Assembly (NCBI GenBank): GCA_035759945.1
Contig: DASTTX010000160.1
Span: 22,004 to 86,003 of the forward strand
Origin: Candidatus Limnocylindria bacterium
GTDB taxonomy: Bacteria > Chloroflexota > Limnocylindria > QHBO01
DNA length: 64,000 nt
Direction of reading: 5' to 3'
The position numbers and the translations under genes were made by a program. Position 1 is the first letter of the stretch. Each line of letters begins with the position of its first letter. The notes under the pieces were generated by a model. That model saw nothing but the letters and a program-made list of their open reading frames with translations, was not told the DNA's origin and did not search any database. Below, piece after piece: positions 4,960 to 48,151 of the stretch.

Positions 4960-6293
4960 GAGCGCAGCGCTCGGGCGAACGGCTTCCGGGATCGGAATGG
5001 ACCCAGGACGGCGAGCCTCGCCTCGGACGGCGCGATGAAGCGCCGCGCCACGCGAAGGAGATCGTCCACGGTGACGGCCTCGAGGCGCTCGATGACCTCG
5101 TCGACGGTGAGGATCCGCGGCAGCAATGACTCGCCGCTGCCGATCCAGCCGGCCACCGCACCGGAGTCCTCCATGCGCAGCTCGAGGCGGCCGCGAGTGT
5201 AGGCGCGTGCACGCTCGAGCTCGTCGGCGTCGACCGGATCGGTCGTGATGCGGTCCAGCTGCTCGAGGACGGCGCGCACGACGCGCTCGGCGTCCTCCGG
5301 GTTGAAGCCGGCATGCACACCGAAGGTGCCGGTATCGGCGTAGCTGGCGCTGAAGGTCGAGACGTCGTACACCAGCGAGCGCCGCTCGCGAAGCTCCAGG
5401 AAGAGCCGGCTGCCCATCCCGTCGCCGAGGATGGCGCCGAGCAGGTCCAGCGCCCACCTGTCCGGATGATCGCGCGCGACGCCGGGCATGCCGAGGCACA
5501 GGTTGCCCTGGCTCAGTCGCCGATGCGAGACGCGCAGGGAGCCCCCAGGCGCCGGAGCGGGGGCCGGGGCGGCGATCGGCGGCCGACGACGCGGGCCACC
5601 CACATCGGGCGGACCGGCGGCGTGCCATTCGGCCGCGGCGCGGACGATCTCGTCGTGGTCGACGCGCCCGGCGGCCGCGAGGACCATCGCGCCCGGCCGG
5701 TAGGCGGCGCGCCAGTGGCCGACGACCGCCTCGTGCGTGGCGCGTCGCACCGAGCCGATGGTGCCGGCGATCTCACGCCCCAGCGGATGCCGCCCGTACA
5801 GCAGCTCGTCGAACAGGGTGAAGACGTGGTCCGACGGCGAGTCGACGTACATCCGGATCTCGTCGACGATCACCGGCTTCTCGGCAGCGAGATCGCGGCG
5901 CCTCAGCAGCGGGTGGAGCGCCAGCTCACTGACGGCGTGGAGGGCCGTATCGGCGTGCTCGGCCGGGACCTTGGAGCTGAAGACCGTCAGCTCGCGGTCG
6001 GTGCTGGCATTCACGCTGCCGCCGATGCCCTCGACCACCTGCGACAGCGTGCCCGCCTCCGGATGGGCGCGCGTGCCCTTGAAGACGAGGTGCTCGAGGA
6101 AGTGCGAGAGGCCGGCGTGCTGCTCGTCCTCGTGGCGCGACCCGACCGGCACGAAAATGGCGACGCTGGCCGAGCGGGCGCCGGGCATCGACTGGGTGAC
6201 GACGCGAAGGCCGCTCTCGAGCACGCTCCGCTGGTGCCCGGGCGCTGCCGCGGCGACGGCGCGTGGCCGCGCGCGCACGGGCGTGGCGGTCAC
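4956..6293 (-). CDS. M16 family zinc metallopeptidase (pitrilysin/insulinase-like)
   Basis: Inverted zincin motif HFLEH (HxxEH) with a downstream E, plus two M16 domains. The likely start is GTG at 6293..6291, overlapping the upstream stop (GTGA). The N-terminal 120 aa of the track ORF is read-through. Confidence 0.85.
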   Translation of the reverse strand: MTATPVRARPRAVAAAAPGHQRSVLESGLRVVTQSMPGARSASVAIFVPVGSRHEDEQHAGLSHFLEHLVFKGTRAHPEAGTLSQVVEGIGGSVNASTDRELTVFSSKVPAEHADTALHAVSELALHPLLRRRDLAAEKPVIVDEIRMYVDSPSDHVFTLFDELLYGRHPLGREIAGTIGSVRRATHEAVVGHWRAAYRPGAMVLAAAGRVDHDEIVRAAAEWHAAGPPDVGGPRRRPPIAAPAPAPAPGGSLRVSHRRLSQGNLCLGMPGVARDHPDRWALDLLGAILGDGMGSRLFLELRERRSLVYDVSTFSASYADTGTFGVHAGFNPEDAERVVRAVLEQLDRITTDPVDADELERARAYTRGRLELRMEDSGAVAGWIGSGESLLPRILTVDEVIERLEAVTVDDLLRVARRFIAPSEARLAVLGPFRSRKPFARALRS

Positions 6294-6808
6294 GGCCCGT
6301 CCTCGTCCTCGTCCGACCGCTCGCCGTCGGCGGCATCGGCGTCGGCCGACATGAGCAGCTCCATCTGGATGAAGCGCAGGTCGCGAGCGAGCTCCTCGGC
6401 GTTGCGCGGGAGCGGCCGGCCGTTCGGCGGGTGGGCCGCATCGGTCTCTCCGTCCGCAGCGAGGCGCGGTTGGCCGCTCGCGGCGAACTCGAGCACGACG
6501 CGCTCGTTGCCGACGGTCAGTGTGTAGACGAGGAGCTGCTCCGAGGTGGTGTCGAACTGGAGGTAGTCGAACGAGTCGAGGTTGACGCAGATGGCGAGCG
6601 GCGTGAAATACGAGGCGATCTCCGGGTGATCCACCACGATGCGCTCCACCCACCCCGTGCCGGTCGACTCGACCTTCGTTCCCCGAACGTAGGTGTAGCT
6701 GACCGTCTGCTTCAGGAGCGGGCGCAGGATGTTGTAGATGTCGCTCTTGCCGGTGACCACGCCGGTGTTGATGTAGAGCTTGGCGCGCGCGTCTGGCATC
6801 GGGCTCAT
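6290..6808 (-). CDS. Hypothetical protein (172 aa) with acidic C-terminal tail
   Basis: Complete ORF with GC3-rich codon usage, beta-rich sequence and a DEDEDGP tail. It is translationally coupled to the M16 peptidase gene. I did not recognise a family. Confidence 0.5.
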   Translation of the reverse strand: MSPMPDARAKLYINTGVVTGKSDIYNILRPLLKQTVSYTYVRGTKVESTGTGWVERIVVDHPEIASYFTPLAICVNLDSFDYLQFDTTSEQLLVYTLTVGNERVVLEFAASGQPRLAADGETDAAHPPNGRPLPRNAEELARDLRFIQMELLMSADADAADGERSDEDEDGP

Positions 6809-6855
6809 GGTAGGGGGATCGCGGGCGAGTCTAGCACCGCCCTCCGCGCCCGACG

Positions 6856-7710
6856 GTGCCGCCGGGAACGACTGCTACGATACGGCCCGTGAAGCTGCTG
6901 GCGGCCGACATCGGCAACACGAACGTCTCGATCGGGCTCTTCACCGACGACCGGCTGGCGCGCTCGTGGCGCGCCATCACGCGTGCGAACGCGACCTCCG
7001 ATGAAGTCGCCGCCATGCTCACCGGCCTGCTCGCGCTGGACGGGCACCGCCTCGACGAGCTCGACGCGGTCGCGCTTGCCAGCGTCGTCCCGCCGCTGAC
7101 CGAGACGTGGGAGCGCCTCAGCGCCGATCGGATCGGCGTGGCGCCCGCCATCGTCGACGCCGCCTCGCTCGACGGCATCCTCGACATCCGGATCGATCGG
7201 CCATCGGAGGCCGGTGCGGACCGTCTCGCCAACGCGCTGGCCGCGCGGACCGAGTTCGGCGGGCCGGCGATCGTGATCGACCTGGGCACCAGCACGAACT
7301 TCGACCTCGTCGACGCCGATGGCGCCTACATCGGCGGGGCGATCGCGCCGGGCATGGGCCTCAGCCTGGAGGCGCTGGTCGGCCGCGCCAGCAAGCTGCC
7401 GCGCATCGAGCTGCGGCGTCCGCCGTCGGCGATCGGCGCCAACACCATCCACGCCATGCAGTCCGGAGCGGTGCTTGGCTACATCGGCCTGGTCAGCGGG
7501 CTGCTGACCGCGCTGCGCGGCGAGCTGATCGAGCGGTCGCCGCGCGAGGCCCGCATCACGGTCGTGGCAACCGGCGGGTACACCCACCAGCCGTGGCTGA
7601 GCGAGGTGCCCGGCATCGACCGGGTCGAGCCCGACCTCACCCTGCGCGGCATCCACTACGCGTGGGCCGCCATCCGTGATCGGTCACGCACCGCGGCGGG
7701 CGAGCGATGA
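6856..7710 (+). CDS. coaX: Type III pantothenate kinase
   Basis: LLAADIGNTN (Bvg accessory factor family phosphate-1 motif), DLGTSTNFD and TGGY motifs. GTG at 6889 is an alternative start. Confidence 0.9.
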   Translation: MPPGTTATIRPVKLLAADIGNTNVSIGLFTDDRLARSWRAITRANATSDEVAAMLTGLLALDGHRLDELDAVALASVVPPLTETWERLSADRIGVAPAIVDAASLDGILDIRIDRPSEAGADRLANALAARTEFGGPAIVIDLGTSTNFDLVDADGAYIGGAIAPGMGLSLEALVGRASKLPRIELRRPPSAIGANTIHAMQSGAVLGYIGLVSGLLTALRGELIERSPREARITVVATGGYTHQPWLSEVPGIDRVEPDLTLRGIHYAWAAIRDRSRTAAGER

Positions 7711-9993: not shown

Positions 9994-11085
9994 CTACAGG
10001 CGCTGGAGCAACCCGTCCACGTCGATCGCGCCGTCGACCAGGTCGATGATGGTCGCGATCTTCTCCGTGTCGGCCGGATGCGTCTTGACCAGGATCTCGT
10101 CAACCGCCTGGGCGGTGCGATACGTATCGGTCCGGACCAGGTAGGCGAACAGGCCGGCTCGTCTGAGCTCGGCCAGGACCGGAGGGCGTGGCTCGAAACC
10201 GCCGGTCAGAATCACGCCGATGACTCGCGGCACGCGCGCCCCGCGGTTCGCCTCGATCGCCGCCAGCAGGAGATCGTCGCGATCGCCGGGCGTGATGAGC
10301 AGCGTTCGGTCACGCAGCAGCTCGACGGCGTGGACCGCCTCCATGGCGCCGATGGCGACCCAGCCGATCGTCTCGCCCGGTGCGGCCTCGCCGCTGCGCA
10401 GCTCTCCCTCGAGGTGCGTCGCCACCAGCTCGAGCGAGGGGTTGGCCAGCAGCTCGGAATACGGGATGCAGCCGAGGAGCTCGACGCCGTGCTGGGAAAG
10501 CCCGCGGGCGAGGATCGCGGGCAGGTCGGGGTGCGAGACGACGTCGACCTTGTTGACCACCGCGCCCAGCACGCGCACGCCGTTGGCGGCGAAGAGCGAG
10601 ACGTTGAGCACGATCTCGTCGATCGGCCGGCCGACGCCACCTTCGCTGACGACGATGACCGGCGCGTCGAGCATTGCCGCGGCCTGGGCGTTCGAGAGGC
10701 CGATGACCGCCCCCACGCCCGCGTGCCCGGTGCCCTCGATGACGACGACGTCCCGATCGCTCGCGACCCGTTCGTACGCCGTGGCGACCTGCGCCGCGAG
10801 GTCGTCGCCGATGCGTCCCATGATGAAGTCGGTGGTGAAGCGCCGCGGCAGGGTCACCGGCGACATGTCGTTCAGCGCATCGGGCAGGCCGAACACCTCG
10901 CTCATCAGGACCGCGTCCTCGTCAGCGCGGGTGCCGTCGACGACGAGGTAGCGCTGGCCGACCGGCTTCAGGAAGCCGAGCCGCAGCCCGCGCTCCCGGA
11001 TTGCGGCAAGCAGACCGAGGCTGGTCGTCGTCTTGCCACGGTTCTGGCCGGTGGCGGCCAGGAAGACGCGCCTCGCCGAGCTCAC
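9994..11085 (-). CDS. Stand-alone phosphotransacetylase N-terminal-domain-like protein (BioD/CobQ-like P-loop + DRTGG domain)
   Basis: N-terminal FLAATGQNRGKTTTSLGL (P-loop, like the Pta N-domain) and C-terminal LLITPGDRDDLLLAAIEA (DRTGG-type). There is no Pta catalytic domain. Confidence 0.7.
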   Translation of the reverse strand: MSSARRVFLAATGQNRGKTTTSLGLLAAIRERGLRLGFLKPVGQRYLVVDGTRADEDAVLMSEVFGLPDALNDMSPVTLPRRFTTDFIMGRIGDDLAAQVATAYERVASDRDVVVIEGTGHAGVGAVIGLSNAQAAAMLDAPVIVVSEGGVGRPIDEIVLNVSLFAANGVRVLGAVVNKVDVVSHPDLPAILARGLSQHGVELLGCIPYSELLANPSLELVATHLEGELRSGEAAPGETIGWVAIGAMEAVHAVELLRDRTLLITPGDRDDLLLAAIEANRGARVPRVIGVILTGGFEPRPPVLAELRRAGLFAYLVRTDTYRTAQAVDEILVKTHPADTEKIATIIDLVDGAIDVDGLLQRL

Positions 11086-11139
11086 GCTTGGGAGTCTACG
11101 GCCTCAGGGCGTGGCCCCGGCTCGTCACCTACCAACCAG

Positions 11140-11745
11140 CTACGAACGGGACTTCGTGCGGCGCTCCACGAGCTCGACGCCCTCGCGCAGCCGGCCGATG
11201 AGCTCGGCGTCGATCATCTCGGGCTCGAGGTGCTCGCCGAGCCGCTCGAGCATGTCGGCCGCGACGGACAGCAGCACGTCCGCATCCGCAATGAAGAACT
11301 GCGGCTCGTTGTTGTAGCGCACGAGCGTCAGGCGGCCCTGGAGCGTGAGCCCGGACTCGGTGTGCGACAGCTGCGTCCCGAAGTTGTGGCCCTGGATGCC
11401 ATCCGGGTTGTTGAGAAAGTTCAGCGCGTTGTCAATGACGAGGCCGAAGCGGGCGCGCCACGACACCAGCCGCTCCTGCACGTCGGACGGCAGGCCCATC
11501 TCACCGAGCTCCTCGAAGACGCCGCGGTCGACGGTCAGGAGCCCAACCAGCGTCGACCCGGCACGGCCGCCGAGCATGACCTGGAGCGACCGCTCCAGCG
11601 TGAACACGTCGGCGTCGAAGCGTGGGCTGGTCGTGACCTCGGCCAGCAGGTCCTCGACGTTGTCGAGCTGGCCGGGATCGGCAAGCGCATTCGCGAGGTT
11701 GTGGATCTCCTCTCGGAACAGGAAGCGCTCTTCGTGATCGAGCAT
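11140..11745 (-). CDS. Hypothetical protein (201 aa)
   Basis: Complete ORF on the same strand, 55 bp upstream of the DRTGG gene. Coding-like composition. No family recognised. Confidence 0.5.
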   Translation of the reverse strand: MLDHEERFLFREEIHNLANALADPGQLDNVEDLLAEVTTSPRFDADVFTLERSLQVMLGGRAGSTLVGLLTVDRGVFEELGEMGLPSDVQERLVSWRARFGLVIDNALNFLNNPDGIQGHNFGTQLSHTESGLTLQGRLTLVRYNNEPQFFIADADVLLSVAADMLERLGEHLEPEMIDAELIGRLREGVELVERRTKSRS

Positions 11746-11749
11746 GGCT

Positions 11750-13018
11750 CTACGGGTAGAGCCCGCGCAGCATGGTCGCCTCGGCGACGCGGGCGACGGC
11801 GACCATGTAGGCCGCGGTCCGCATGTCCACCTCGTGGCGCTCGCTCATGGCGTAGACCGCCTCGAAGGCGCGGTCCATGATCTCCTTGAGGCTCTCGTTG
11901 ATGCGCTCCTCGGTCCAGAAGAAGCTCTGCATGTCCTGGACCCACTCGAAGTAGCTGACCGTCACGCCGCCGGCGTTGCAGAGGATGTCGGGGATGAGGA
12001 AGACGCCGCGGTCGTAGAGGATCGCATCGGCTTCAGGAGTGGTCGGTCCGTTGGCGGCCTCGGCCACGACCTTGGCCTTGATGCGTGGGGCGTTGTGCCG
12101 CGTGATCTGATTCTCGAGCGCGGCCGGGACGAGGATGTCGCAGTCGACCTCGAGCAGCTCCTGGTTGCTGACCTCGTCGGCTCCGGGGAAGCCGACCACC
12201 GTGCCGTGCTCCTGCTTCCACGTCCCGACCTTCGATGGCTCCAGGCCGTTCGCGTTGTGGATGCCGCCGCTCGAGTCGCTCACGGCCACGATGGTGGCCC
12301 CCTGCTCGCGCAGCAGCGTCGCCGCGATGCTGCCGGCGTTGCCGTAGCCCTGGATCGCGACGCGCGCGCCGTGGAGCGGCTGGTTCTTCGCCGCCGCCCA
12401 CTGCTGGAGCGTGAACACGGCGCCACGCGCGGTGGCCTCGTTGCGGCCCAGCGAGCCACCGACCGCGATCGGCTTGCCGGTCACGACGCCGGGGATGGTG
12501 AAGCCGTGGTGCATGGAATAGGTGTCCATGATCCAGGCCATGGTCTGCGCGTTGGTGTTGACGTCCGGTGCAGGGATGTCGCGCTCGGGACCGATGAGCG
12601 GGCTGATCTCCGTCGTGAAGCGGCGCGTCAGCCCCTCGACCTCGCGGATCGACAGCTGCTTGGGATCGACGACCACGCCGCCCTTGGCTCCGCCGTACGG
12701 AATGTTGACGCACGCGCACTTCCACGTCATCCACATCGACAGCGCACGGACCTCGTCCAGGCTCACGTCCTGGTGGTAGCGGATGCCACCCTTGCCCGGC
12801 CCGCGGCTCACGTTGTGCTGGACGCGGTGGCCGGTGAAGACGCGGACGGATCCGTCGTCCATGGTGACGGGGAAGTTGACCGTCAGCTCACGCTGGGGAA
12901 CGCGGAGGACGCGCCGCATGCCATCGTCGAGATCGAGCTTGTCGGCTGCGTGGTCGAACTGCGACTGGGCGACCGCCCAGATGTTCGGTGCCTCCGCCAC
13001 GGGGTTCTGGCTGGCCAT
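11750..13018 (-). CDS. gdhA: Glutamate dehydrogenase (Glu/Leu/Phe/Val dehydrogenase family), paralog 1
   Basis: Catalytic-lysine region GGAKGG, an NAD(P) Rossmann fold (GYGNAGS), and a conserved dimerisation domain. Confidence 0.9.
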   Translation of the reverse strand: MASQNPVAEAPNIWAVAQSQFDHAADKLDLDDGMRRVLRVPQRELTVNFPVTMDDGSVRVFTGHRVQHNVSRGPGKGGIRYHQDVSLDEVRALSMWMTWKCACVNIPYGGAKGGVVVDPKQLSIREVEGLTRRFTTEISPLIGPERDIPAPDVNTNAQTMAWIMDTYSMHHGFTIPGVVTGKPIAVGGSLGRNEATARGAVFTLQQWAAAKNQPLHGARVAIQGYGNAGSIAATLLREQGATIVAVSDSSGGIHNANGLEPSKVGTWKQEHGTVVGFPGADEVSNQELLEVDCDILVPAALENQITRHNAPRIKAKVVAEAANGPTTPEADAILYDRGVFLIPDILCNAGGVTVSYFEWVQDMQSFFWTEERINESLKEIMDRAFEAVYAMSERHEVDMRTAAYMVAVARVAEATMLRGLYP

Positions 13019-13159
13019 AGGTGCGGTGAGTGCCTCCTATGCGACGCGACGCCGGCGCCTCTACGCGCCGCATGGTCCGAAGGCGGAAGCAGGCCGGATC
13101 GCGGTGACGGTTCCCGATTCTAGCGCAGGTCTCGTACGCGCCACCGGTACGAAGGAGGG

Positions 13160-15532
13160 ATGCGCGCCGAGCGCTCGACGGACGTCCGTCCCGCTAGCAT
13201 CACGCCGATGACAACCGCCGACGTGCTCGAGGCTCCCCCACCCCGCCTCACGACCGCCGATGCCGAGGGCGTCGCCCGAACCACGTTCGGCATCGAGGCC
13301 ACCGCCGAGCCACTCGTCAGCGAGCGCGATCAGAACTTCCGGCTGACCGATGCCGCCGGCGCCGGATGGGTCCTGAAGGTCTCCAACGCTGCGGAGGACC
13401 CCGGCGTGGTGGAGATGGAGGTCGCGGCCGTCGAGCGGATCGCGCTGGTCGAACCCGGGCTGCCACTGCCGGTGGCGCGGCCCGCGCTCGACGGATCCCC
13501 GATCGCGACGACCCACATCGGTGAAACGCAGCACCTCGTGCGCCTCCTGCCGCTCCTGCCTGGCCGCAACGCCAGGCCGGGCGAGCTGGACGCCGCCAGC
13601 GTCCGCGACATCGGCGAGCTGGTGGCGCGCATCGGCCATGCATTACGTGGGTTCTTCCATCCCGCCGCAGGCAGGACGATCCTGTGGGACCAGCAGCGGC
13701 TGCCCCTTCTCTTCAAGCACAGCGCCTTGGTCGAAGCACGACCGCGTCGCGATCTCCTGGAACGAGTGCTCGAGCGCTTCCGCGACCGGGTCCTGCCGGC
13801 GCTGCCGACGCTCCGGTCACAGGTCATTCACAACGACCTGACGCTCGACAACCTCCTGGTGGACGAGGCCGGGCACGTGACGGGCGTCATCGACTTCGGC
13901 GACATGGCCCACACCGCGCTGGTGCTCGACATCCCCGCCACGCTCCAGTCGCTCGTCCGCGAGCGCGATGAAATCTTCGCCGTGGCACAGGCATTCCTGG
14001 CCGGCTATGCGTCGGTCGTGCCGCTCGAGGAGCTCGAGGTGGAGCTGCTCGGCGACCTGCTGGCCGGGCGGATGGCGCAGACGATCCTGATCAGCGCGTT
14101 TCGCACCAGGCAGTACCCGGACAACGCCTACATCCACGGCTGGGCGGAGCCGGCCTGGGTGCTGCTCGAGCAGCTCGACGCGATCGGCTTCGACGATGCC
14201 TCACGCCGGCTTGCCGCCATGGCGGCGCAGCCGATGGGCTCCTCCGTCGCGAGCGACGAGGCGCTCATCGCGCGGCGGGCCGTGCTCGGCAGCGCGCTGG
14301 AGCCGCTGAGCTATCGGCGACCGCTGCATCTGGTTCGCGGGCGCGGCGCGTGGCTGGGGGACGCCGATGGACGGCGCTACCTCGACGCCTACAACAACGT
14401 GCCCGTCGTCGGCCATGCGCACCCGAAGGTGGTCGACGCCATCGCGCGCCAGTCATCGTTGCTGAACACGAACACGCGCTACCTGCACGAGCACGTGGTC
14501 GAGCTGGCGGAGCGCATCACTGCGTCCATGCCCGACGGGCTCGACACGGTCATGTTCGTCAACTCCGGGAGCGAGGCGAACGACCTCGCCTGGCGCATCG
14601 CCTCGACGGTGACCGGCGGCGACGCCGGGCTCGTCACGGATTGGGCGTACCACGGCGTCACGGCACGGATCGCGGATTTCTCGCCGTCTGAGTGGAACGA
14701 CGGCGTGCGGCCCGATGGCGTGGAGACGTTCGCGGCACCCAACACCTACCGAGGCCCGTCCGCCGACGCTGATGACCCGCCAGCGATCGCCGCCGAGGAG
14801 ATGGGATCTGCCGTGGCGCGACTGGGCGAGCGTGGTCGGCGGCCAGCGGCGCTGTACATCGACTCGCTCTTCAGCGCCGACGGGATCTTCACGCCGGATC
14901 CTGCGGTCGTTCGAGCGCTGGTGGAGTCGGCGCGCAAGGCCGGTGCGCTGTGGGTGGCGGATGAGGTCCAGTCCGGCCACGGCCGCACCGGCGGCGGCCT
15001 GTGGGGCTTCAGCGCATGGGGCATCACGCCGGACTTCGTCACGCTCGGCAAGCCGATGGGGAACGGTTATCCGATCGCTGCGGTCGTCACCCGCTCGGAC
15101 CTCGTGGACCGGTTCGCGAAGGCGACGACGTTCTTCAGCACCTTCGGCGGCAATCCGGTGGCGTGCGCCGCGGCGCTCGCCGTGCTGGACGTGATCGAGG
15201 ACGAGGACCTGGTCGCGCGGGCAGCGACCGTCGGCGACTCGCTGCGAGGCGACCTGTCGGCGCTCGCCGACAGCCATCCGTCCATCGGCGACGTGCGCGG
15301 CCGCGGGCTGATCGCCGGCGTCGAGCTCGTGCTCGACCGCGTCACGCGGGAGCCCGATCGTGAGCTGGCCGCTCGTGTCAAGGACGAGATGCGCGAGCGC
15401 GGCGTGCTGATCGGGACGACCGGCCGCCACGGCAACGTCCTGAAGATCCGTCCCCCGCTCGCGATCACCGCCGACGAGGCAGTGATGATCCCGACCCGCC
15501 TCGGCCAGGTGCTGACGGACCTCGAGCGCTAG
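13160..15532 (+). CDS. Fusion protein: N-terminal APH/choline-kinase-like kinase domain + C-terminal class-III (PLP) aminotransferase/phospho-lyase-like domain
   Basis: Kinase Brenner motif HNDLTLDN (HxDxxxxN) and IDFGD. C-terminal GK-box TLGKPMGNG (PLP lysine), DEVQSG and class-III hallmarks. 790 aa; an alternative start is MTTADVL at 13208. Confidence 0.85.
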   Translation: MRAERSTDVRPASITPMTTADVLEAPPPRLTTADAEGVARTTFGIEATAEPLVSERDQNFRLTDAAGAGWVLKVSNAAEDPGVVEMEVAAVERIALVEPGLPLPVARPALDGSPIATTHIGETQHLVRLLPLLPGRNARPGELDAASVRDIGELVARIGHALRGFFHPAAGRTILWDQQRLPLLFKHSALVEARPRRDLLERVLERFRDRVLPALPTLRSQVIHNDLTLDNLLVDEAGHVTGVIDFGDMAHTALVLDIPATLQSLVRERDEIFAVAQAFLAGYASVVPLEELEVELLGDLLAGRMAQTILISAFRTRQYPDNAYIHGWAEPAWVLLEQLDAIGFDDASRRLAAMAAQPMGSSVASDEALIARRAVLGSALEPLSYRRPLHLVRGRGAWLGDADGRRYLDAYNNVPVVGHAHPKVVDAIARQSSLLNTNTRYLHEHVVELAERITASMPDGLDTVMFVNSGSEANDLAWRIASTVTGGDAGLVTDWAYHGVTARIADFSPSEWNDGVRPDGVETFAAPNTYRGPSADADDPPAIAAEEMGSAVARLGERGRRPAALYIDSLFSADGIFTPDPAVVRALVESARKAGALWVADEVQSGHGRTGGGLWGFSAWGITPDFVTLGKPMGNGYPIAAVVTRSDLVDRFAKATTFFSTFGGNPVACAAALAVLDVIEDEDLVARAATVGDSLRGDLSALADSHPSIGDVRGRGLIAGVELVLDRVTREPDRELAARVKDEMRERGVLIGTTGRHGNVLKIRPPLAITADEAVMIPTRLGQVLTDLER

Positions 15533-16704
15533 ACGGTCTCGATCGCCATGGCCACCGCTCCACCGCCGCCGAGGCAGAGCGTCGCCAGGCCCCTGCCGCC
15601 GCCACGACGGCGCAGCTCGTAGAGGAGCGTCGTCAGCACGCGGGCGCCGGAGGCGCCGATGGGATGGCCGAGCGCGATCGCGCCACCGTTGACGTTAACG
15701 CGGTCCCAGTCGAATCCGAGCTCGTTGCCATCGGCCAAAACCTGGGCTGCGAAGGCCTCGTTGATCTCGATCAGGTCGAAGTCGTCCAGCGTCCCGCCGA
15801 CCTTCTGGATCAGGCGCCGAACGCCATGGATCGGCGCCTCGAACAGCCACTCGGGGGCGACGTCGGCCTGGGCGTAGCCGGTGATGCGCGCCATCGGCTG
15901 GGCGCCATTCATGGCCTCTTCGGAGCCGATGACGACGGCAGCCGCGCCATCGGTGATCCCCGGCGCGTTTCCCGCGGTGACGGTCCCGCCATCGGGCTGG
16001 AAGGCCGGCCGGAGCTTCGCGAGCGCCTCGGCGCTCGTATCGGCCCGGGGCCCTTCATCGGCCGAGACGACGGTGTCGCCCTTCTTGCCCGCCACGGTGA
16101 CCGGCACGATCTCGTCGTCGAAGCGCCCCGCCTCCTGTGCCGCGATGGCTCGCTGGTGCGAGCGCAGCGCCAGCTCGTCCTGCGCCTCGCGCGTGACATC
16201 GTGCTTCGCCGCCACCCGCTCGGCGTGCAGGCCCATGTGGACGTCGCAGGTCGCGCACCACAGGCCGTCGTGAACCGTCGCGTCGACGAGCACGCCATTG
16301 CCGAGCCGGTAGCCGGTGCGCGCCTGCGGCAGCAGGTAGGGCGCCATGTTCATGCTCTCCATGCCGCCCGCCACGATGAGATCGGCGTCGCCGGCACGGA
16401 TGGCCGATGCGCCGATCATCACCGCCTTCAGGCCCGAGCCACAGACCTTGTTGATGGTCGTTGCGCTGACGCCCTCAGGCAGCCCTGCCTTCAGCGCGGC
16501 CTGGCGTGCCGGCGCCTGGCCGGCGCCCGCCTGGAGCACCTGGCCGATGATCGCCTCGTCGACCCGTTCGGGCGCAATGCCGGCTCGCTCGACGGCGGCG
16601 CGGATCGCGACTGCGCCCAGGTCCGTGGCGGGGGTGGTCGAGAGCCCACCGCCGAACTTGCCGATCGGCGTCCTGGCGGCGGAGAGGATGTACACGTCAC
16701 GCAT
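15529..16704 (-). CDS. Acetyl-CoA C-acetyltransferase (thiolase II)
   Basis: N-terminal ILSAARTPIGKFGG with NKVCGSGLKA (active Cys), a C-terminal GGGAVAMAIE-type region with the active-site Cys (LCLGGG), and the conserved H in the NGGAIALGHP motif. Confidence 0.9.
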   Translation of the reverse strand: MRDVYILSAARTPIGKFGGGLSTTPATDLGAVAIRAAVERAGIAPERVDEAIIGQVLQAGAGQAPARQAALKAGLPEGVSATTINKVCGSGLKAVMIGASAIRAGDADLIVAGGMESMNMAPYLLPQARTGYRLGNGVLVDATVHDGLWCATCDVHMGLHAERVAAKHDVTREAQDELALRSHQRAIAAQEAGRFDDEIVPVTVAGKKGDTVVSADEGPRADTSAEALAKLRPAFQPDGGTVTAGNAPGITDGAAAVVIGSEEAMNGAQPMARITGYAQADVAPEWLFEAPIHGVRRLIQKVGGTLDDFDLIEINEAFAAQVLADGNELGFDWDRVNVNGGAIALGHPIGASGARVLTTLLYELRRRGGGRGLATLCLGGGGAVAMAIETV

Positions 16705-16885
16705 GTGCTGATGGTACTCGTCGGCGGCGCCCGCCGGGTTTGGCAGAGCCGGGTGCCAAGCTGCACCTGCCGGCCGTTGGCGCCGTTCTGTCAGGGACCA
16801 ACCAGGGGCGCCTTAGGCGCAGTCCGCCAGCCCGACGATCGGGGCAACCCGTCATCTGCCATTCGCATTGGTACCTGGCGACGAA

Positions 16886-16898
16886 TTGCGAGTCGCAA
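16886..16898. promoter_or_regulatory. 6-1-6 perfect palindrome TTGCGAgTCGCAA in fadD-thiolase intergenic region
   Basis: Read directly. It lies in the 269-bp gap, ~180 bp upstream of the thiolase start and ~75 bp downstream of the fadD stop. Confidence 0.25.
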
Positions 16899-16972
16899 CG
16901 CCCGTGGGAGCGAAACGCAGCCGCTCGTGTTCGCCTCAGGTCGCCGTGGTTGGTATCCGGCGAAACCCGCCG

Positions 16973-18895
16973 CTATTTCGAGTCGGCGGGGCGCTCGTCG
17001 AACAGGTACGCGACCTTGTCGGCCCAGTTCTTCACGACGACGCGGTTCTTCGTCTTCAGCGAGGGCGTCAGCTCCCCCTCTTCCTCGGACAGCAGGCGCG
17101 GCAGGAGGGCGACCCGCCGCGGCCGCTCGTGCACGCCGAAGCCGTCGAGCGTGCGCTTGACCTCGGTGTCGTACAGCTTCTCGACGGATGGCTGCTCGAC
17201 CAATTGCTCGGGCGGCATCTCCGCCAGGCCGTTGGCCGCGGCCCAGGCCCCGAGCTCGTCGAAGTCCGGCGCGATCAGCGCTCCGGTGTACGGCTGGCCA
17301 TCGCCGAGGATGACCGCCTGGGCCACGAACCGCGAGCTCGAGAGCGCCGCCTCCATCGGTCCGGGCGAGACGTTCTTGCCATTGCCGAGGACGATGATGT
17401 TCTTGAGCCGATCGGTGATGCGGATGCGGCCGATCTCGTCCAGCTCGCCGATGTCGCCGGTATGGAACCAGCCATCGGCGTCGATGGCGCGGGCGGTCTC
17501 CTCGGGCTGGTTGAGGTAGCCCTGCATGACCTGCGGGCCGCGGACCAGGATCTCGCCGGTGTCCGGATCGATGCGCACCTCGGAGCCCGGTGCGGCGCGT
17601 CCGACCGTCCCGAACACGAAGTCGTCAGGACGGTTGACACTGACGAACGGCGAAGTCTCGGTCAGGCCGTATCCCTCGAGGACCAGCATGCCCATGGCGT
17701 AGAAGAACTCGCCGATCTCGCTCGACAGCGCCGCCGACCCCGACACGAAATAGCGCACGCGACCGCCGGTCCGGTCCCGGATCTTGCCGAAGACCAGGGC
17801 ATCGGCAACCTTCAACTGGAGCGCGAGCCAGGGCGAATCGCCGCGTCCGGCCAGGTGGTTGGCGTACTTCCGGCGCCCGAGCCCGGCGGCCCAGTGGAAG
17901 ATGCGCTGACGCATCGGCGAGCCGGCCTCGACGGCGGACAGCACGCGAGCGTAGACGCGTTCGTACAGCCGCGGTGGCGCGCCCATGACGGTCGGGCGCA
18001 CCTCGACCATGTTCGCGGGCAGCCGCTCGATGACCGCCTCCGCGTACACCACGGCGGCCCCGCGACCGAGCGCAATGACCTCGTCGACGATCCGGCCGTA
18101 GATGTGCGACAGCGGAAGGAAGCTGAGGAAGATATCGGTCTCGTAGAAGTCGACGACCTGGTTGGCCGCCTCGTAGTTGAAGAGCACGTTGCCGTGACTG
18201 AGGACCGCTCCCTTTGGGTTGGCCGTGGTGCCCGAGGTATGGATGACGGTGGCGATGTGGTCCCGGTCGATGGCCTTCCAGGCGTCCTGCCATTCGAGGC
18301 GGTTGGCGGCGTCGGTATCGGCTCGGGCCATGACGTCGTCGAGGGTCAGCGTGCCCGCCGGCAGCTTGCCGCTCGGCTCGAAGGCCACGATGTGCTCGAG
18401 CGTCGGGCACTCGGCTCGGATCGACTCGATCTTGGCGGCCTGCTGCGCATTCTCGACGAAGATCAGGCGCGCGCTGACGTTGTTGATGACGAACGCGGCC
18501 TGGCCCGCCTCCGACTGCGGATAGATCGGGCACGTGACCGCGCCGAGCGCCAGCGACGCCAGGTCGGCGATCGCCCACTCCGGACGCGTGCGCGCGATGA
18601 TCGCGACCGAGTCCCCGTCATGGATGCCGATGTCCTTGAGGCCAAGCGACACGCTGGTGACCCAGTCCCACATCTCGCGATACGTTCGGCTGGTCCAGAC
18701 CGCCTCGGTGGCGCCCTCCGGCCGCTGGGACTTGGGAAGCTTCCAGCGCATCGCCTCGCGGCCGGAGTTGCGCTCGACGGATCGGTGGATGAGGTCGACC
18801 ACGCTGCTGGCGCGGTCCTCGGGCGCGACGATCAGGGGCTCGAGCTCGGGGGTCTGCAGGACGCGCGGCACGGCGGTGGCGGCGGGGGTCGTCAT
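16973..18895 (-). CDS. fadD: Long-chain-fatty-acid--CoA ligase (AMP-dependent synthetase/ligase)
   Basis: AMP-binding signature HTSGTTANPKGAVLSHGN, GYGLTETS, and the GWFHTGDIGELDEIGRIRITDRLKNII linker/A8 region. Confidence 0.9.
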   Translation of the reverse strand: MTTPAATAVPRVLQTPELEPLIVAPEDRASSVVDLIHRSVERNSGREAMRWKLPKSQRPEGATEAVWTSRTYREMWDWVTSVSLGLKDIGIHDGDSVAIIARTRPEWAIADLASLALGAVTCPIYPQSEAGQAAFVINNVSARLIFVENAQQAAKIESIRAECPTLEHIVAFEPSGKLPAGTLTLDDVMARADTDAANRLEWQDAWKAIDRDHIATVIHTSGTTANPKGAVLSHGNVLFNYEAANQVVDFYETDIFLSFLPLSHIYGRIVDEVIALGRGAAVVYAEAVIERLPANMVEVRPTVMGAPPRLYERVYARVLSAVEAGSPMRQRIFHWAAGLGRRKYANHLAGRGDSPWLALQLKVADALVFGKIRDRTGGRVRYFVSGSAALSSEIGEFFYAMGMLVLEGYGLTETSPFVSVNRPDDFVFGTVGRAAPGSEVRIDPDTGEILVRGPQVMQGYLNQPEETARAIDADGWFHTGDIGELDEIGRIRITDRLKNIIVLGNGKNVSPGPMEAALSSSRFVAQAVILGDGQPYTGALIAPDFDELGAWAAANGLAEMPPEQLVEQPSVEKLYDTEVKRTLDGFGVHERPRRVALLPRLLSEEEGELTPSLKTKNRVVVKNWADKVAYLFDERPADSK

Positions 18896-18969
18896 CGGTC
18901 TGGCGTCTCCTGGTTGATGTGGGCGTCATCGGTTTCGCAGGCGCGCTGCGGAGGGCTACGGTCCGGTCG

Positions 18970-20151
18970 TCATCCCTCCCGGCGCATGCCGTCGAGCAGG
19001 CCCTGGGCCACGATGAGCCGATGGATCTGGTTGGTCCCCTCGTAGATCTGCGCTCCCTTGGCGTCTCGCATGAGGCGTTCCACCGGGTTGTCGCGCGAGT
19101 AGCCGGCGCCGCCGTAGATCTGCACGGCGTCGGTCGTCACGCGCATGGCGGTGTCGGAGGCGTACCACTTGGCCATGCTCGAGGCTGAATTGATCGGATG
19201 ACCGGCGTCACGCATGCGGGCCGCCCGCCAGGTGAGCAACCGCGCGGCATCGACCTGGACCGCCATCTCGGCCAGCATCGCCTGGATCATCTCCTGGTCG
19301 GCGATGGCGCGACCGAACTGGCGCCGCTCGAGCGCATAGCGCGTGGCGAGCTCGAGCGCATTGCGCGCCAGGCCGACGCAGCAGGCGGCGATGCTGATCC
19401 GTCCCGCGCCGAGCGACGAGAGCGCGACGCGCAGCCCCTCCCCCTCCTCGCCGAGACGGTTGTCGGCCGGGACGCGGGCGTCCTCGAACACGATCTCGTA
19501 CCCGGTGGTGCCGCGAATGCCCATCTTCCGCTCCTTCGAGCCGAGGCGGAAGCCGGGGGTGTCGGCCTCGACGACGAAGGCGGTGATGCCGTCCTTGCCC
19601 TTGCTGCGGTCGACGGTGGCGAAGACGACGTAGCGGGCCGCCTCGCCGGCGTTCGTGATCCAGATCTTCGTCCCGGTCAGGAGGTACGCGTCGCCGTCGC
19701 GCCGCGCGGAGAGCGAGAGCGCTGCCGCATCGGAGCCGGCGCCCGGTTCGGTGAGCGCGAAGGCGCCCAGCTCGCGGCCGGCGGTCATCGACGGGAGGAA
19801 GCGCTGCTTCTGCTCCTCGGACCCGCTGGCGAAGATGCACAGCTGGCTCAGGATGTGAACCGAGAAGCTGACGGCCAGGCCCATGTCGGCGGCGCCGATC
19901 TCCTCGGCAGCGAGGGCCCACGCGAAGCTGCCCATCCCGGCACCGCCGTACGCCTCGGGATACGGGAGCCCGGTCAGTCCGAGCTCGCCGGCGCGATGGA
20001 AGAGCGAGATGTCGTAGCGCTCGGCCTCGTCACGCTCCGCGGCGCCGGGCAGCACCTCCCGCCGCGCCCAATCGCGGACCGTGTCGCGGACGACCCGCTC
20101 TTCCTCCGTCAGCGCGAACGAGTCGCGGGTGGGCGCCGTCTCGACCGCCAC
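18970..20151 (-). CDS. Acyl-CoA dehydrogenase (short-chain/butyryl-CoA dehydrogenase-like)
   Basis: ACAD N/M/C domains, GAFALTEPGAGSD, a YxGT-like FAD region and the catalytic Glu region QIYEGTNQI. GTG start at 20151. Confidence 0.9.
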   Translation of the reverse strand: MAVETAPTRDSFALTEEERVVRDTVRDWARREVLPGAAERDEAERYDISLFHRAGELGLTGLPYPEAYGGAGMGSFAWALAAEEIGAADMGLAVSFSVHILSQLCIFASGSEEQKQRFLPSMTAGRELGAFALTEPGAGSDAAALSLSARRDGDAYLLTGTKIWITNAGEAARYVVFATVDRSKGKDGITAFVVEADTPGFRLGSKERKMGIRGTTGYEIVFEDARVPADNRLGEEGEGLRVALSSLGAGRISIAACCVGLARNALELATRYALERRQFGRAIADQEMIQAMLAEMAVQVDAARLLTWRAARMRDAGHPINSASSMAKWYASDTAMRVTTDAVQIYGGAGYSRDNPVERLMRDAKGAQIYEGTNQIHRLIVAQGLLDGMRREG

Positions 20152-21030
20152 CTATCCGACCTTCTTGCCCGTCTCGTCGTAGGTGTAGAAGCCGCGTCCG
20201 GTCTTGCGCCCGAGATGTCCGGCGGTGACCATCTGGCGCAGCAGCGGCGCGGCGCGGAACTTCGGGTCGCCGAAGCCGCGGTACAGCACGTCCATGACGC
20301 CGAGCATCACGTCGTTGCCGATGAAGTCGCTCAGCTCGAGCGGTCCCATCGGATGGTTCAGGCCGAGCTTCGCGCCGGTGTCGATGTCCTCCGCCGTGCC
20401 GGTCGACTCCATGAGCGCGAACACGGCCTCGTTGATGAACGGGCCGAGCATCCGGTTCACCAGGAAGCCCGGGTAGTCCTTCGACTCGATCACCGTCTTG
20501 CCGAGCTCCTCGGCGAACGTGCGGCAGGCGTCGTAGGTCTCGTCGTCGGTCTCGAGCCCGCGGATGATCTCGATGAGGCCCATCACCGGCACGGGCGAGA
20601 AAAAGTGCAGGCCGATGAACCTCGGCGCACGGTCGGTCGCCGTGGCGAGGCCGGTGATGCTGATGCTGCTGGTATTCGAGGCGAAGATCGCGATCGGGTC
20701 CGCCGCCTTCGTCAGCGCCTCCCAGGTCTGCCGCTTGACCGATTCGTCCTCGAACACGGCCTCGATGACGATGTCGTGGCCGGCGGCGCCATCGGTCCCT
20801 TCGCTGGTGCTGACGCGTTCGAGGATCTCGTCCGCGGCCGACTGCTCGAGCTTGCCCTTGTCCACCTGTCGCTTCAGGTTGGAGCCGATGCGAGCCTTGC
20901 CCTTCTCCGCCAGCTCCGCCGTGCGGTCGGAGAGCGTCACCCGCTTGCCGGCGGCAGCGCTGACCTGGGCGATGCCGTGGCCCATCAGCCCGGCGCCGAT
21001 GACGAAAACGCGTTCGATGCTCATCGTCAT
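20152..21030 (-). CDS. hbd: 3-hydroxybutyryl-CoA dehydrogenase
   Basis: Rossmann VFVIGAGLMGHGIAQV, SNTSSISIT and the catalytic His region; the C-terminal domain is typical of the 3HCDH family. The start ATG overlaps the meaB stop (ATGA). Confidence 0.9.
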   Translation of the reverse strand: MTMSIERVFVIGAGLMGHGIAQVSAAAGKRVTLSDRTAELAEKGKARIGSNLKRQVDKGKLEQSAADEILERVSTSEGTDGAAGHDIVIEAVFEDESVKRQTWEALTKAADPIAIFASNTSSISITGLATATDRAPRFIGLHFFSPVPVMGLIEIIRGLETDDETYDACRTFAEELGKTVIESKDYPGFLVNRMLGPFINEAVFALMESTGTAEDIDTGAKLGLNHPMGPLELSDFIGNDVMLGVMDVLYRGFGDPKFRAAPLLRQMVTAGHLGRKTGRGFYTYDETGKKVG

Positions 21031-21941
21031 CCAAGCCTACCAGCGTCGAGCAGGCGTTCGGCCGCGGTGAACGGGTCGAGCTCGCGATCCGCAACGGCCT
21101 GGACCGTTGCCTCCCAGCCCGGATCAGCCTCCGCGTGCCTGGCGGCGAGGTCGGCCAGTGCGCGCCGCACCTGGCTCGCGGCGCGTTCGCGCGCCCGCAT
21201 CGGCGAGCGCGCGGTGGAGCGATGCGCCTCGATCGCGTCGACGAGTGCGGGCACGCCCTCGGCGGTCGTGGCCGTGGTCACCAGGACCGGGGGCGGCTTG
21301 CGCTCGATCCGTCCACCGGCGGTGGACAGCATGGCGCGCAGCTGCCTCGCCGCCCGATCGGCACCCGGGCGGTCACCCTTGTTCACGGCGATGATGTCGG
21401 CCACCTCGAGCAGCCCTGCCTTGATGGCCTGCACCTCGTCGCCCATCTCGGGCACCTCGACCACGACGGTCGTCTCCGCGAGCCGGGCGATCTCGACCTC
21501 CGACTGCCCCGCCCCGACCGTCTCGATCAGGATCGGGTCGAAGCCCGCCGCATCGAGCGCGGCGGCGGCGATCCAGGTCGTGGCCGCCAGCCCGCCGAGC
21601 TCACCGCGCGACGCCATGGAGCGCATGAAGACGTCGCGATCGGCGGCGTGCTCCATCATCCGGATCCGATCGCCCAGGATCGCGCCGCGTGTGTACGGCG
21701 AGCTCGGGTCGACCGCCAGGATCCCGACGCGCCTGCCACGGCCGCGCCACGCACCGATGAGCGCGTTGACCAGCGTTGACTTGCCGCTCCCTGGCGGCCC
21801 GGTGATGCCGACCACGTGGGCCCCATGCCCGGCGCTGAACAGCTCCGGCAGGAGCTCCCGAACCGATGGATCGCCGCTCTCGATCCGCGTCAGCAGCCGC
21901 GCCAGCGGTCGCCGCTGGCCGGATGCCAGCTCCGCGATCAT
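21027..21941 (-). CDS. meaB: Methylmalonyl-CoA mutase-associated G-protein chaperone MeaB/ArgK
   Basis: P-loop GITGPPGSGKST, G3 ETVGAGQSE and NKGD (NKxD) motifs. Confidence 0.9.
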   Translation of the reverse strand: MIAELASGQRRPLARLLTRIESGDPSVRELLPELFSAGHGAHVVGITGPPGSGKSTLVNALIGAWRGRGRRVGILAVDPSSPYTRGAILGDRIRMMEHAADRDVFMRSMASRGELGGLAATTWIAAAALDAAGFDPILIETVGAGQSEVEIARLAETTVVVEVPEMGDEVQAIKAGLLEVADIIAVNKGDRPGADRAARQLRAMLSTAGGRIERKPPPVLVTTATTAEGVPALVDAIEAHRSTARSPMRARERAASQVRRALADLAARHAEADPGWEATVQAVADRELDPFTAAERLLDAGRLG

Positions 21942-21950
21942 GGGCGGCTG

Positions 21951-21970
21951 CCGTATATACCGTATATACG
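21951..21970. repeat. Tandem AT-rich palindromic element CCGTATATAC-CGTATATACG between icmB-like and meaB
   Basis: Two direct copies of a 9/10-mer containing the palindrome GTATATAC sit in the 36-bp intergenic gap. Local AT content is far above the ~30% background. Confidence 0.5.
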
Positions 21971-21977
21971 CAGTCCG

Positions 21978-22394
21978 TCAGGCCCGACGCACATGCTCGC
22001 GGAAGTAGCGCGCGATCTGCCCGATGCTCGTGCCCGGCCCGAAGATCTCCGCGACGCCCGCCGCCTTCAGCTTGGTGACGTCGGCATCGGGGATGATCCC
22101 GCCCGCGGCGACGAGGACGTCGTCCATGCCCCGTTGGCGGAGGAGCTCGACGGTCCGCGGCAGCAGGGCCATGTGGGCGCCGGACAGGATCGACAGCCCG
22201 ACGACGTCGACGTCCTCCTGCTCGGCGGCATCGGCGATCATCTCCGGCGTCTGGCGCAGGCCGGTGTAGATCACCTCGAAGCCCTCGTCGCGCAGCCCGC
22301 GCGCGAGCACCTTGGCGCCGCGATCGTGCCCGTCGAGGCCGGGCTTCGCGATGAGGACGCGGATGGGCGCGTCGGTCGAGCGGTCGTTCGTCAT
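21978..22394 (-). CDS. icmB: B12-binding small subunit of an acyl-CoA mutase (isobutyryl-CoA mutase small-subunit-like)
   Basis: Cobalamin-binding domain: [15 protein letters not shown] (DxHxxG His-on motif) and GGIIP. ~138 aa from ATG at 22394. The track ORF's extra 32 aa is upstream read-through. Confidence 0.8.
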
Positions 22395-22630: not shown

Positions 22631-22924
22631 TCAAGGCACCAGTCGGTCGATCTGCTCGGCGAGCTCCGTGTCGCGCGCGGTGATCGCGCCCGCCGCGTGC
22701 GTCGACAGGGTGAAGGTGACCTTCTTGTAGTCATGGATGCAGACGTCCGGGTGGTGATTGGCCGCCTCGGCGGCCCCCGCCACCTGGTTCACGAGCCGGA
22801 CCGCGGCGGTGAAGCCGCCGACCTCGACGGTCCGGGTCAGCGAGGCACCGTCGCGGCCCCACTCGGGCAGGCGCCCGAGCGCATCGGTCAGCTGGTCTTC
22901 GGTCAGTGGTTCGGCGTACGGCAT
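22631..22924 (-). CDS. Pterin-4-alpha-carbinolamine dehydratase
   Basis: 97 aa. An EWGRDGASLTRTVEVGGF-type fold with the conserved HHPD motif (AANHHPDVCI). Confidence 0.85.
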   Translation of the reverse strand: MPYAEPLTEDQLTDALGRLPEWGRDGASLTRTVEVGGFTAAVRLVNQVAGAAEAANHHPDVCIHDYKKVTFTLSTHAAGAITARDTELAEQIDRLVP

Positions 22925-38761: not shown

Positions 38762-38857
38762 CTGACCCGCTCCGGCCCGGTTCGTGCAACCATAAGGTTC
38801 CCGCCCTATTCCAAGTGCGCGTCCGTACCAGCGGTGCGCCGATTCCACCGGAGCACG

Positions 38858-47641: not shown

Positions 47642-48151
47642 TCAGTGAAGCTCGGGGAGGAGCTCATCCAGGCGATCCCAGGTCTCGATCGCGCCGGCGG
47701 TCATGCCGGTGGCGAGGGCGGCCTCGACCGCCTCCTCCGAGCCCATGTGGCCGACGGCCCGCATCTTGGTGCGACCGTCGCCGAGATCCTCGAGGGTCAG
47801 CGTCTCCGGCCCGCCCTGCGGCCCGACGCCGGGGACATCGAACATGAACGTCCACTTGATGCGCTCCGGCTCGACGACCTCGAGGTACTCGCCGTAGAAG
47901 GCGAACTCGTTGCCCGACTCGTCGGTACTCACCCAGCGCCACTTCCCGCCGGGACGGAGGTCGAGGTCGACGACGCGGGTGGTATGCCCGCGCGGTCCCC
48001 ACCAGCGAGGAATGAGGTCGGCGTCGGTGTTGGCGCGCCAGACGAGCTCGCGCGGCGCGTCGAAGATCCGTTCATACGTGAGGTCGCCGCCTTCCGAGTA
48101 GATGGTGGTCGTGTCGCTGCTGCCTCGGTCAATCCTGGTCGCGGTCATCAT
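47642..48151 (-). CDS. SRPBCC superfamily protein, AHSA1 (activator of Hsp90 ATPase homolog)-like
   Basis: ~165 aa with the pattern YERIFDAPRELVWRANTDADLIPRWWGP...GGKWRW, typical of AHSA1/SRPBCC. It overlaps the arsR 3' end by 23 nt. Confidence 0.75.
   Translation of the reverse strand: MMTATRIDRGSSDTTTIYSEGGDLTYERIFDAPRELVWRANTDADLIPRWWGPRGHTTRVVDLDLRPGGKWRWVSTDESGNEFAFYGEYLEVVEPERIKWTFMFDVPGVGPQGGPETLTLEDLGDGRTKMRAVGHMGSEEAVEAALATGMTAGAIETWDRLDELLPELH

Follow-up and report, generated by a model that had tools for sequence, protein, structure and literature searches.

Isomerisation between butyrate and isobutyrate through isobutyryl-CoA mutase (ICM) is an established and reversible process (PMC7764203), and ICM cassettes accompanied by beta-oxidation genes have been described in isobutyrate-degrading Syntrophomonadaceae (PMC8674449). 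In Streptomyces, the role assigned to ICM is the supply of polyketide precursors (PMC2847961). The DNA analysed here, referred to as the window, is a whole stretch of 64 kb from a Candidatus Limnocylindria bacterium; it carries an acyl-CoA mutase's large-subunit gene (icmA) and, 20 kb away, a cluster in which genes for a small B12-binding subunit (icmB) and a G-protein chaperone (meaB) precede genes of beta-oxidation. Judged from these sequences, the window quite probably encodes a heteromeric adenosylcobalamin-dependent ICM, for which a catabolic role appears most likely. Gene identities, site residues, clade membership, and conserved synteny are observed, whereas the IcmA-IcmB pairing, the substrate, and the flux direction are inferred. 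The system appears to be a conventional unfused ICM with its chaperone, previously annotated in this lineage solely as 'methylmalonyl-CoA mutase'.

The heterotetrameric IcmA/IcmB of S. cinnamonensis (EC 5.4.99.13) resembles the window proteins in that the large and the small B12-binding subunits are separate (large subunits of 566 aa in Streptomyces and 584 aa in the window; small subunits of approx. 136-138 aa). Streptomyces IcmA orthologues also share with the window protein the residues Phe/Ala/Gln (F/A/Q) at three specificity sites and membership of the same tree clade, and their gene is likewise unlinked to a small-subunit gene (S. albidoflavus, 10 kb). However, identity is limited to 48%, the host is a soil Chloroflexota (Ca. 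Limnocylindria-like), and in the window icmB belongs to the same operon as meaB and genes of beta-oxidation. The 2-hydroxyisobutyryl-CoA mutase (HCM) system of Aquincola and M. petroleiphilum (HcmAB/MeaH/Hcl) provides the best structural relative of both window subunits (4r3u_A, 541 bits; 4r3u_C, 127 bits) and has the same unfused subunits, a MeaB-type chaperone (45% identical), and an AMP-forming ligase and hbd in the vicinity. It differs in carrying Ile/Asp/Gln (I/D/Q) instead of F/A/Q, in an unrelated ligase, and in its contiguous gene order, hcmB-hcl-meaH-hcmA, whereas the window genes are split. Split methylmalonyl-CoA mutases (MCM), such as that of Ilyobacter polytropus (large-small-meaB-mce-decarboxylase), likewise combine a large subunit devoid of a B12 domain (52-55% identical to that of the window) with a stand-alone small subunit and MeaB; nonetheless, they show Tyr/Ala/Arg (Y/A/R), form a separate clade, and have epimerase and carboxyltransferase genes as neighbours instead of hbd, acyl-CoA dehydrogenase (ACAD), and thiolase genes.

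The fused IcmF of Cupriavidus metallidurans (4xc6) presumably performs the same chemistry with the same modules, i.e., a B12 domain, a MeaB-like GTPase, and a barrel. The gene order icmB-meaB in the window matches the first two IcmF domains, and Gln230 of the window large subunit maps by coordinates to 4xc6 chain position 762, which we take to be native Gln742. Unlike IcmF, which is a single polypeptide, the window system consists of three separate genes, with the barrel encoded 20 kb away. A preliminary description of this locus had regarded the unfused arrangement as the presumed precursor of IcmF, which the comparison does not bear out. The IcmF NCBIfam model scored 62, 127, and 320 bits on the three window open reading frames (ORFs), the highest value being that of the large subunit, against a cut-off of 1500, and IcmF was the most distant mutase catalytic chain of the Protein Data Bank (PDB) matched by the large subunit (272 bits vs. 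541 for HcmA and approx. 465 for MCM); therefore, the lineage is neither a close relative nor an evident ancestor of IcmF. The icmB-meaB order is frequent also beside MCM- and HCM-type mutases, and a concatenated query of small subunit, MeaB, and large subunit against plasmids gave no IcmF-labelled record among the 60 matches listed.

Specificity sites and family placement of the large subunit

The large subunit (42004-43758, plus strand; 584 aa) is matched by TIGR00641 (718 bits) and by PF01642 (698 bits), the latter spanning residues 38-576; PF02310 is absent, i.e., there is no fused B12 domain. The three sites are occupied by Phe112, Ala139, and Gln230 within the motifs RMF(112)AGF, LSIA(139)YD, and IAQ(230)KEY. 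HMMER alignment to solved structures places RQIAGF, ISTDFD, and MAQKEY of HcmA (4r3u), and RQYAGF, LSVAFD, and MVRNTY of human, M. tuberculosis, and P. shermanii MCM, at the same positions; the MCM structures 1req, 2xij, and 6oxc have Tyr and Arg where the window protein has Phe112 and Gln230. This Tyr/Arg pair has been described as the specificity determinants of MCM (PMC7238569).

Labelled references, i.e., annotated plasmid proteins aligned with the window protein, reproduce these patterns. I/D/Q was found in three proteins from hcmB-hcl-meaH-hcmA clusters (M. petroleiphilum PM1, Xaut_5021, and Mycobacterium sp. ELW1), and Y/A/R was found in the split MCMs of Ilyobacter, Brevibacillus, and three Streptomyces plasmid copies, among which the Ilyobacter and Brevibacillus genes adjoin those of methylmalonyl-CoA epimerase and carboxyltransferase. 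F/A/Q occurs also in one Deinococcus and one haloarchaeal plasmid protein. Xaut_5043, which together with Xaut_5044 we take to be a native pivalyl-CoA mutase (PCM) after the work of Kitanishi in 2015, shares 40-42% identity with the window protein; it reads RQLIGL and IANHQF, i.e., L/-/N. For Streptomyces, a query sequence served purely as a probe; among the real Streptomyces proteins of 566 aa that it brought up, several are named 'isobutyryl-CoA mutase large subunit' by their sources, and the S. albidoflavus orthologue (P0402), at 48% identity to the window protein, is F/A/Q.

We take Phe80 and Gln198 to be the specificity residues of ICM, and this pair has reportedly been tied to ICM biochemistry by Ratnatilleke in 1999, Cracan in 2010, and Jost in 2015. 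The literature search turned up no statement of ICM residues or of the icmA/icmB arrangement, the key primary reports in JBC and J Bacteriol lying outside its reach. As far as sequence can tell, the site pattern of the large subunit is that of an ICM. The motifs RMFAGF and IAQKEYIF, from which the preliminary description had read the ICM pair, are present in the protein, and its assignment of Phe/Gln to ICM held when the protein was aligned with Streptomyces IcmA orthologues and with references for HCM, MCM, and Xaut_5043. The HCM (Ile/Asp) and PCM signatures that it had named as contrary evidence were looked for in this alignment and are not present.

Three other identities were considered for the large subunit, and its site residues speak against each. 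An HCM is contradicted by Phe and Ala in place of Ile90 and Asp117, an MCM by Phe112 and Gln230 instead of Tyr and Arg, and a PCM of the Xaut_5043 type by the absence of the Leu/Asn pattern from the window protein.

An exhaustive search of 50%-identity representatives, in which the best 150 relatives were examined at the three sites, placed these residues in a wider family context. Together with ten aligned references, these representatives comprised 70 Y/A/R, 22 F/A/Q, and 4 I/D/Q proteins, and F/A/Q was the pattern of every one of the 150 that covers the sites and shares at least 56% identity with the window protein. In a second survey, limited to one genome per species, 80 loci were returned (52 F/A/Q, 27 Y/A/R, and one partial), and unfused F/A/Q mutases proved to be spread across many bacterial and archaeal phyla. 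In a neighbour-joining tree, which is distance-based and carries no bootstrap or other support values, 56 F/A/Q sequences grouped as a pure clade; among them are the window protein, inside a Chloroflexota subclade, and three Streptomyces IcmA orthologues. HCM proteins and haloarchaeal F/A/Q proteins attach one node further out, and 30 Y/A/R proteins fall apart from the clade.

Approximately one third of the best 150 representatives (P0241-P0390) belong to none of the three classes. Their triplets, for example VVG, VVV, VVR, IVC, LVL, QDH, and NVS, suggest acyl-CoA mutases with yet-unassigned substrates.

The icmB-meaB cluster and its beta-oxidation genes

The window has a G+C content of 70%, and the ORFs with high third-position G+C return the gene list of the preliminary description: all seven genes, i.e., icmA and the six minus-strand genes of the cluster, have the coordinates and strands that it had given. 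The cluster begins with the small subunit (21978-22394; 138 aa), which is matched by TIGR00640 (177 bits; cut-off 57) and PF02310. Its translation contains D21-G-H23-D-R-G26, the DxHxxG base-off/His-on motif, and in the PDB it comes closest to 2yxb and HcmB (4r3u_C, 127 bits), both of them stand-alone B12 subunits. Alternative upstream starts are possible for this ORF (ATG 22436, TTG 22490); homologues of 133-141 aa favour the start at 22394. After a spacer of 36 nt follows the MeaB-type chaperone (21027-21941; 304 aa), which has a GPPGSGKS P-loop and an NKGD motif, exceeds the equivalog cut-off of TIGR00750 (304 bits vs. 241), scores 281 bits with PF03308, and shares 45% identity with MeaH from the hcm cluster of M. 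petroleiphilum.

The meaB stop and the start of hbd share an ATGA overlap, and hbd and the ACAD gene abut directly without a spacer (window 20149-20154, TAG followed by GTG). Hbd (20152-21030; 292 aa) is an NAD-dependent 3-hydroxybutyryl-CoA dehydrogenase with 3HCDH_N and 3HCDH domains; its scores with PRK05808 (375 bits) and PRK07530 (356 bits) are each slightly below the cut-off, and like the thiolase it is of the acetoacetyl-CoA type. The ACAD (18970-20151; 393 aa) is of the short-chain, butyryl-CoA type by structure matches: its closest solved relatives are 4l1f (367 bits), 5ol2_C, and the rat short-chain enzyme 1jqi, and isobutyryl-CoA dehydrogenase 1rx0 is clearly more distant (254 bits). 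We take 4l1f and 5ol2 to be butyryl-CoA dehydrogenases, although they were deposited merely as acyl-CoA dehydrogenases. The thiolase (15529-16704; 391 aa) has Thiolase_N and Thiolase_C domains (E = 2e-103) and is of the acetoacetyl-CoA type, i.e., an acetyl-CoA C-acetyltransferase (PRK08235, 498 bits; TIGR01930, 456 bits). It is separated from the ligase gene (fadD) by a gap that the preliminary description had rightly noted, at a length of 269 bp where 268 nt were measured (window 16705-16972), and the thiolase gene probably forms a separate transcription unit. On the whole, the core of that description, an unfused ICM of which IcmB is encoded together with MeaB in a cluster for butyryl-CoA beta-oxidation and IcmA at a distance of 20 kb, is supported, as is its ATGA overlap.

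The AMP-forming acyl-CoA ligase (16973-18895; 640 aa; PF00501 AMP-binding, E = 2e-74, with AMP-binding_C_3) is FadD11/ACSL-like, and its solved structural relatives are weak. The preliminary description held that the gene set can activate a short acid. The ligase scores 361 bits with the FadD11 model, far under the equivalog cut-off of 950, and shows no similarity to the 2-hydroxyisobutyric acid (2-HIBA) ligase Hcl of M. petroleiphilum (E = 0.2), which dismisses an Hcl-like enzyme; there is therefore no evidence for short-acid activation.

A Pfam scan of approx. 60 window ORFs gave no match to a crotonase family, the absence of which from the cluster had already been pointed out, and no second mutase or second B12-binding subunit. 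No cobalamin riboswitch was found in the 64-kb window, and a promoter/terminator scan of the cluster gave no signal exceeding chance. Two ELFV dehydrogenases (11750-13018, minus strand; 37490-38761, plus strand) are archaeal-type glutamate-dehydrogenase paralogues; in the window and its relatives, the thiolase end of the icmB cluster is accompanied in synteny by one of them, and the other is located upstream of icmA. A link to valine through these genes was rejected, both being of the glutamate-dehydrogenase type and not valine dehydrogenases.

Judging from the gene junctions, icmB and meaB are transcribed together with hbd and the genes of a butyryl-CoA-type dehydrogenase and an acyl-CoA ligase, with coupled translation. 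Since the thiolase also lies just downstream, a catabolic role of the mutase would be most likely. In the proposed pathway, IcmA would form the substrate-binding barrel and IcmB the B12-binding subunit, while MeaB would be the GTPase responsible for loading and guarding the cofactor. The mutase would interconvert isobutyryl-CoA and n-butyryl-CoA, and isobutyryl-CoA originating from valine or isobutyrate would thus be converted to butyryl-CoA. The latter would be dehydrogenated to crotonyl-CoA, hydrated by a crotonase presumably encoded elsewhere in the genome, oxidised by Hbd, and finally cleaved to two molecules of acetyl-CoA. Minor activities known from ICM-type enzymes, such as the interconversion of pivalyl-CoA and isovaleryl-CoA, may exist alongside the main one.

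Gene context in the survey provides independent support for this role. Loci were counted only where they had flanks of at least 5 kb on each side (31 F/A/Q and 17 Y/A/R). At least one of hbd, ACAD, or thiolase genes was nearby in 17 of the 31 F/A/Q loci and in 3 of the 17 Y/A/R loci (Fisher p = 0.016), and two or more were nearby in 9/31 and 0/17, respectively (p = 0.018).

Several observations were made on the junctions and neighbours of the cluster. The icmB-meaB spacer holds the palindromic 8-mer GTATATAC in tandem (GTATATAC-G-GTATATAC; window 21953-21969), which could be an operator or a processing site; the tandem site occurs once in the window, where shuffles expect none (the genome has 70% G+C), and it is missing in L004 and L006, two relatives with spacers of -4 and 20 nt. 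Upstream of icmB, at a distance of 236 nt, sits a pterin-4a-carbinolamine dehydratase gene (22631-22924), which is missing from this position in L004 and L006, where folE directly precedes icmB. For one relative, a single product of 236 aa (P0142) is called that comprises the dehydratase and the B12-binding subunit. In L006, hbd and ACAD are called as one 685-aa product with 3HCDH and ACAD domains (11358-13415), which could be a real fusion or an assembly error. Between fadD and thiolase, relatives L003 and L004 contain a divergent pair of ArsR-type helix-turn-helix and AHSA1 genes (approx. 15384-16225); the equivalent in the window is the 268-nt gap, and an AHSA1-family gene lies 30 kb off (47642-48151, minus strand). 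The stop codon of the thiolase gene overlaps by 4 nt, convergently, that of a gene (13160-15532, plus strand) for a 790-aa protein of the PRK06148 family (709 bits), in which an APH-type kinase domain is fused to a class-III aminotransferase. The sole Rfam match in the window is an ASdes small RNA (39176-39243, minus strand; 55.8 bits, E = 1.8e-10); it is antisense within an acyl-ACP desaturase-family gene (38834-39796, plus strand) immediately upstream of the prolyl-oligopeptidase/icmA region and may be mere conservation of the desaturase coding sequence.

Split layout, subunit pairing and competing explanations

The icmA gene is solitary, with a prolyl-oligopeptidase gene on one side and a subtilase gene on the other. 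Close relatives, which are Ca. Limnocylindria or Chloroflexota by their source names, have a lone icmA in the same neighbourhood and also keep the icmB-meaB-hbd-acad-fadD-thiolase cluster; the distance from icmB to icmA is 19.6 kb in the window and approx. 20.6 kb on ERZ25039577:contig_15715. An icmB-like gene beside icmA, which the preliminary description had named as a finding that would speak against it, was looked for in the window and the relatives examined, and none was seen. Because this synteny is conserved and one large and one small subunit are the only such genes found in 64 kb, we infer that IcmA and IcmB are probable partners.

Such a split layout of icmA and icmB is not unusual, since 9 of the 31 F/A/Q loci, as well as S. 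albidoflavus, likewise lack a linked small subunit. In the remaining F/A/Q loci, the small subunit lies within 1 kb (18 loci) or at 1-10 kb (4 loci), and it is absent nearby in 9 of the 17 Y/A/R split loci. In two complete S. albidoflavus genomes, neither a B12-binding gene nor one for MeaB lies within 10 kb of icmA. In a search for the context of icmB in Streptomyces, the plasmid matches listed are scpA-meaB or unannotated. The icmA and icmB genes of S. cinnamonensis were, we assume, published and cloned as unlinked genes. A different arrangement is seen in a Thermoplasmatota metagenome-assembled genome (MAG), in which an unfused small subunit, meaB, and an F/A/Q large subunit follow one another on one strand in IcmF domain order (L065, 8636-11578).

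A number of points weigh against a dedicated catabolic ICM. The pairing of IcmA with IcmB is drawn from a 64-kb window, and other large or small subunits may be present elsewhere in the genome; moreover, the small subunit is 61% identical to both F/A/Q-adjacent and Y/A/R-adjacent subunits (p = 0.93). The substrate assignment rests on two or three residues and clade membership, and in the literature covered the Tyr/Arg pair of MCM is the only one quoted (PMC7238569). The ligase looks long-chain by its sequence, neither a crotonase nor a valine-specific gene lies near the mutase genes in the window, and the direction of flux could be biosynthetic. The last point leads to an unlikely alternative in which butyryl-CoA, obtained from fatty acids or through reversed thiolase, Hbd, and ACAD reactions, would give rise to isobutyryl-CoA, and this would prime iso-branched lipids or valine. 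Such a direction fits the reversibility of ICM, a thiolase of the biosynthetic acetoacetyl-CoA type, the provision of polyketide building blocks by Streptomyces ICM (PMC2847961), and the suggestion that butyrate-to-isobutyrate isomerisation sustains an isobutyrate pool for valine synthesis (PMC7764203). However, the ACAD is a catabolic-type FAD dehydrogenase and not an enoyl-CoA reductase, the presence of an acyl-CoA ligase in the operon points to acids being taken up and activated, and genes of lipid or valine biosynthesis are not adjacent. It is very improbable that the mutase acts instead on a hydroxylated substrate, as HCM or RCM do, and interconverts 2-hydroxyisobutyryl-CoA and 3-hydroxybutyryl-CoA, the latter then being oxidised by Hbd. 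HcmA is indeed the closest solved structure (541 bits), hbd is translationally coupled to meaB, HCM clusters combine a small subunit, an AMP-ligase, and MeaH with hbd nearby, and HCM proteins branch within or beside the F/A/Q group. Nonetheless, both HCM-defining residues are absent (Ile90 is replaced by Phe and Asp117 by Ala, in a comparison with HCM), the window ligase is unrelated to Hcl (E = 0.2), and the butyryl-CoA dehydrogenase of the cluster would be superfluous in a route through 3-hydroxybutyryl-CoA.

The remaining alternatives concern not the reaction but the partners. It is distinctly unlikely that the large subunit at 42 kb lacks a dedicated partner in icmB-meaB and that this pair serves another one (e.g., a split MCM) or is shared among several, even though the small subunits beside F/A/Q and Y/A/R mutases are equally similar to that of the window and 9 of 17 Y/A/R split large subunits also occur without a nearby small subunit. 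Against this, one large and one small subunit are the only ones found in the window, the 20-kb interval recurs in relatives along with both neighbourhoods, and the beta-oxidation context matches F/A/Q and not Y/A/R loci. In a more specific version, which we regard as highly doubtful, the small subunit and MeaB would be a shared cofactor module for at least two large subunits devoid of a B12 domain (ICM and, e.g., a split MCM), and the separation from icmA would be explained by one small subunit and one chaperone serving several specificities. The lack of a partner-specific signature in small subunits and the many F/A/Q and Y/A/R large subunits without a nearby small subunit fit this version. 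An Anaerolineales MAG (L026) also bears on both possibilities: its Y/A/R (5812-7464) and F/A/Q (10001-11620) large subunits, both without a B12 domain, lie 2.5 kb apart, and no small subunit or MeaB was found across the 20 kb examined, which hints at a shared B12-binding subunit there, an arrangement unlikely for this window.

Significance for soil Chloroflexota and unfused mutases

Knowledge of the enzyme mechanism is left unchanged by these results, and the gene layout is one that is common to Streptomyces and about a third of comparable loci. For the family, the survey reveals a preferential linkage of unfused F/A/Q mutases to hbd, ACAD, and thiolase genes. For the organism, a catabolic ICM amounts to a prediction made at the level of sequence: Ca. 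Limnocylindria, an abundant soil lineage, would isomerise isobutyryl-CoA to butyryl-CoA and thereby feed beta-oxidation. Such a prediction may be used to correct the blanket annotation 'methylmalonyl-CoA mutase' and to reconstruct the metabolism of valine and isobutyrate turnover in soils.

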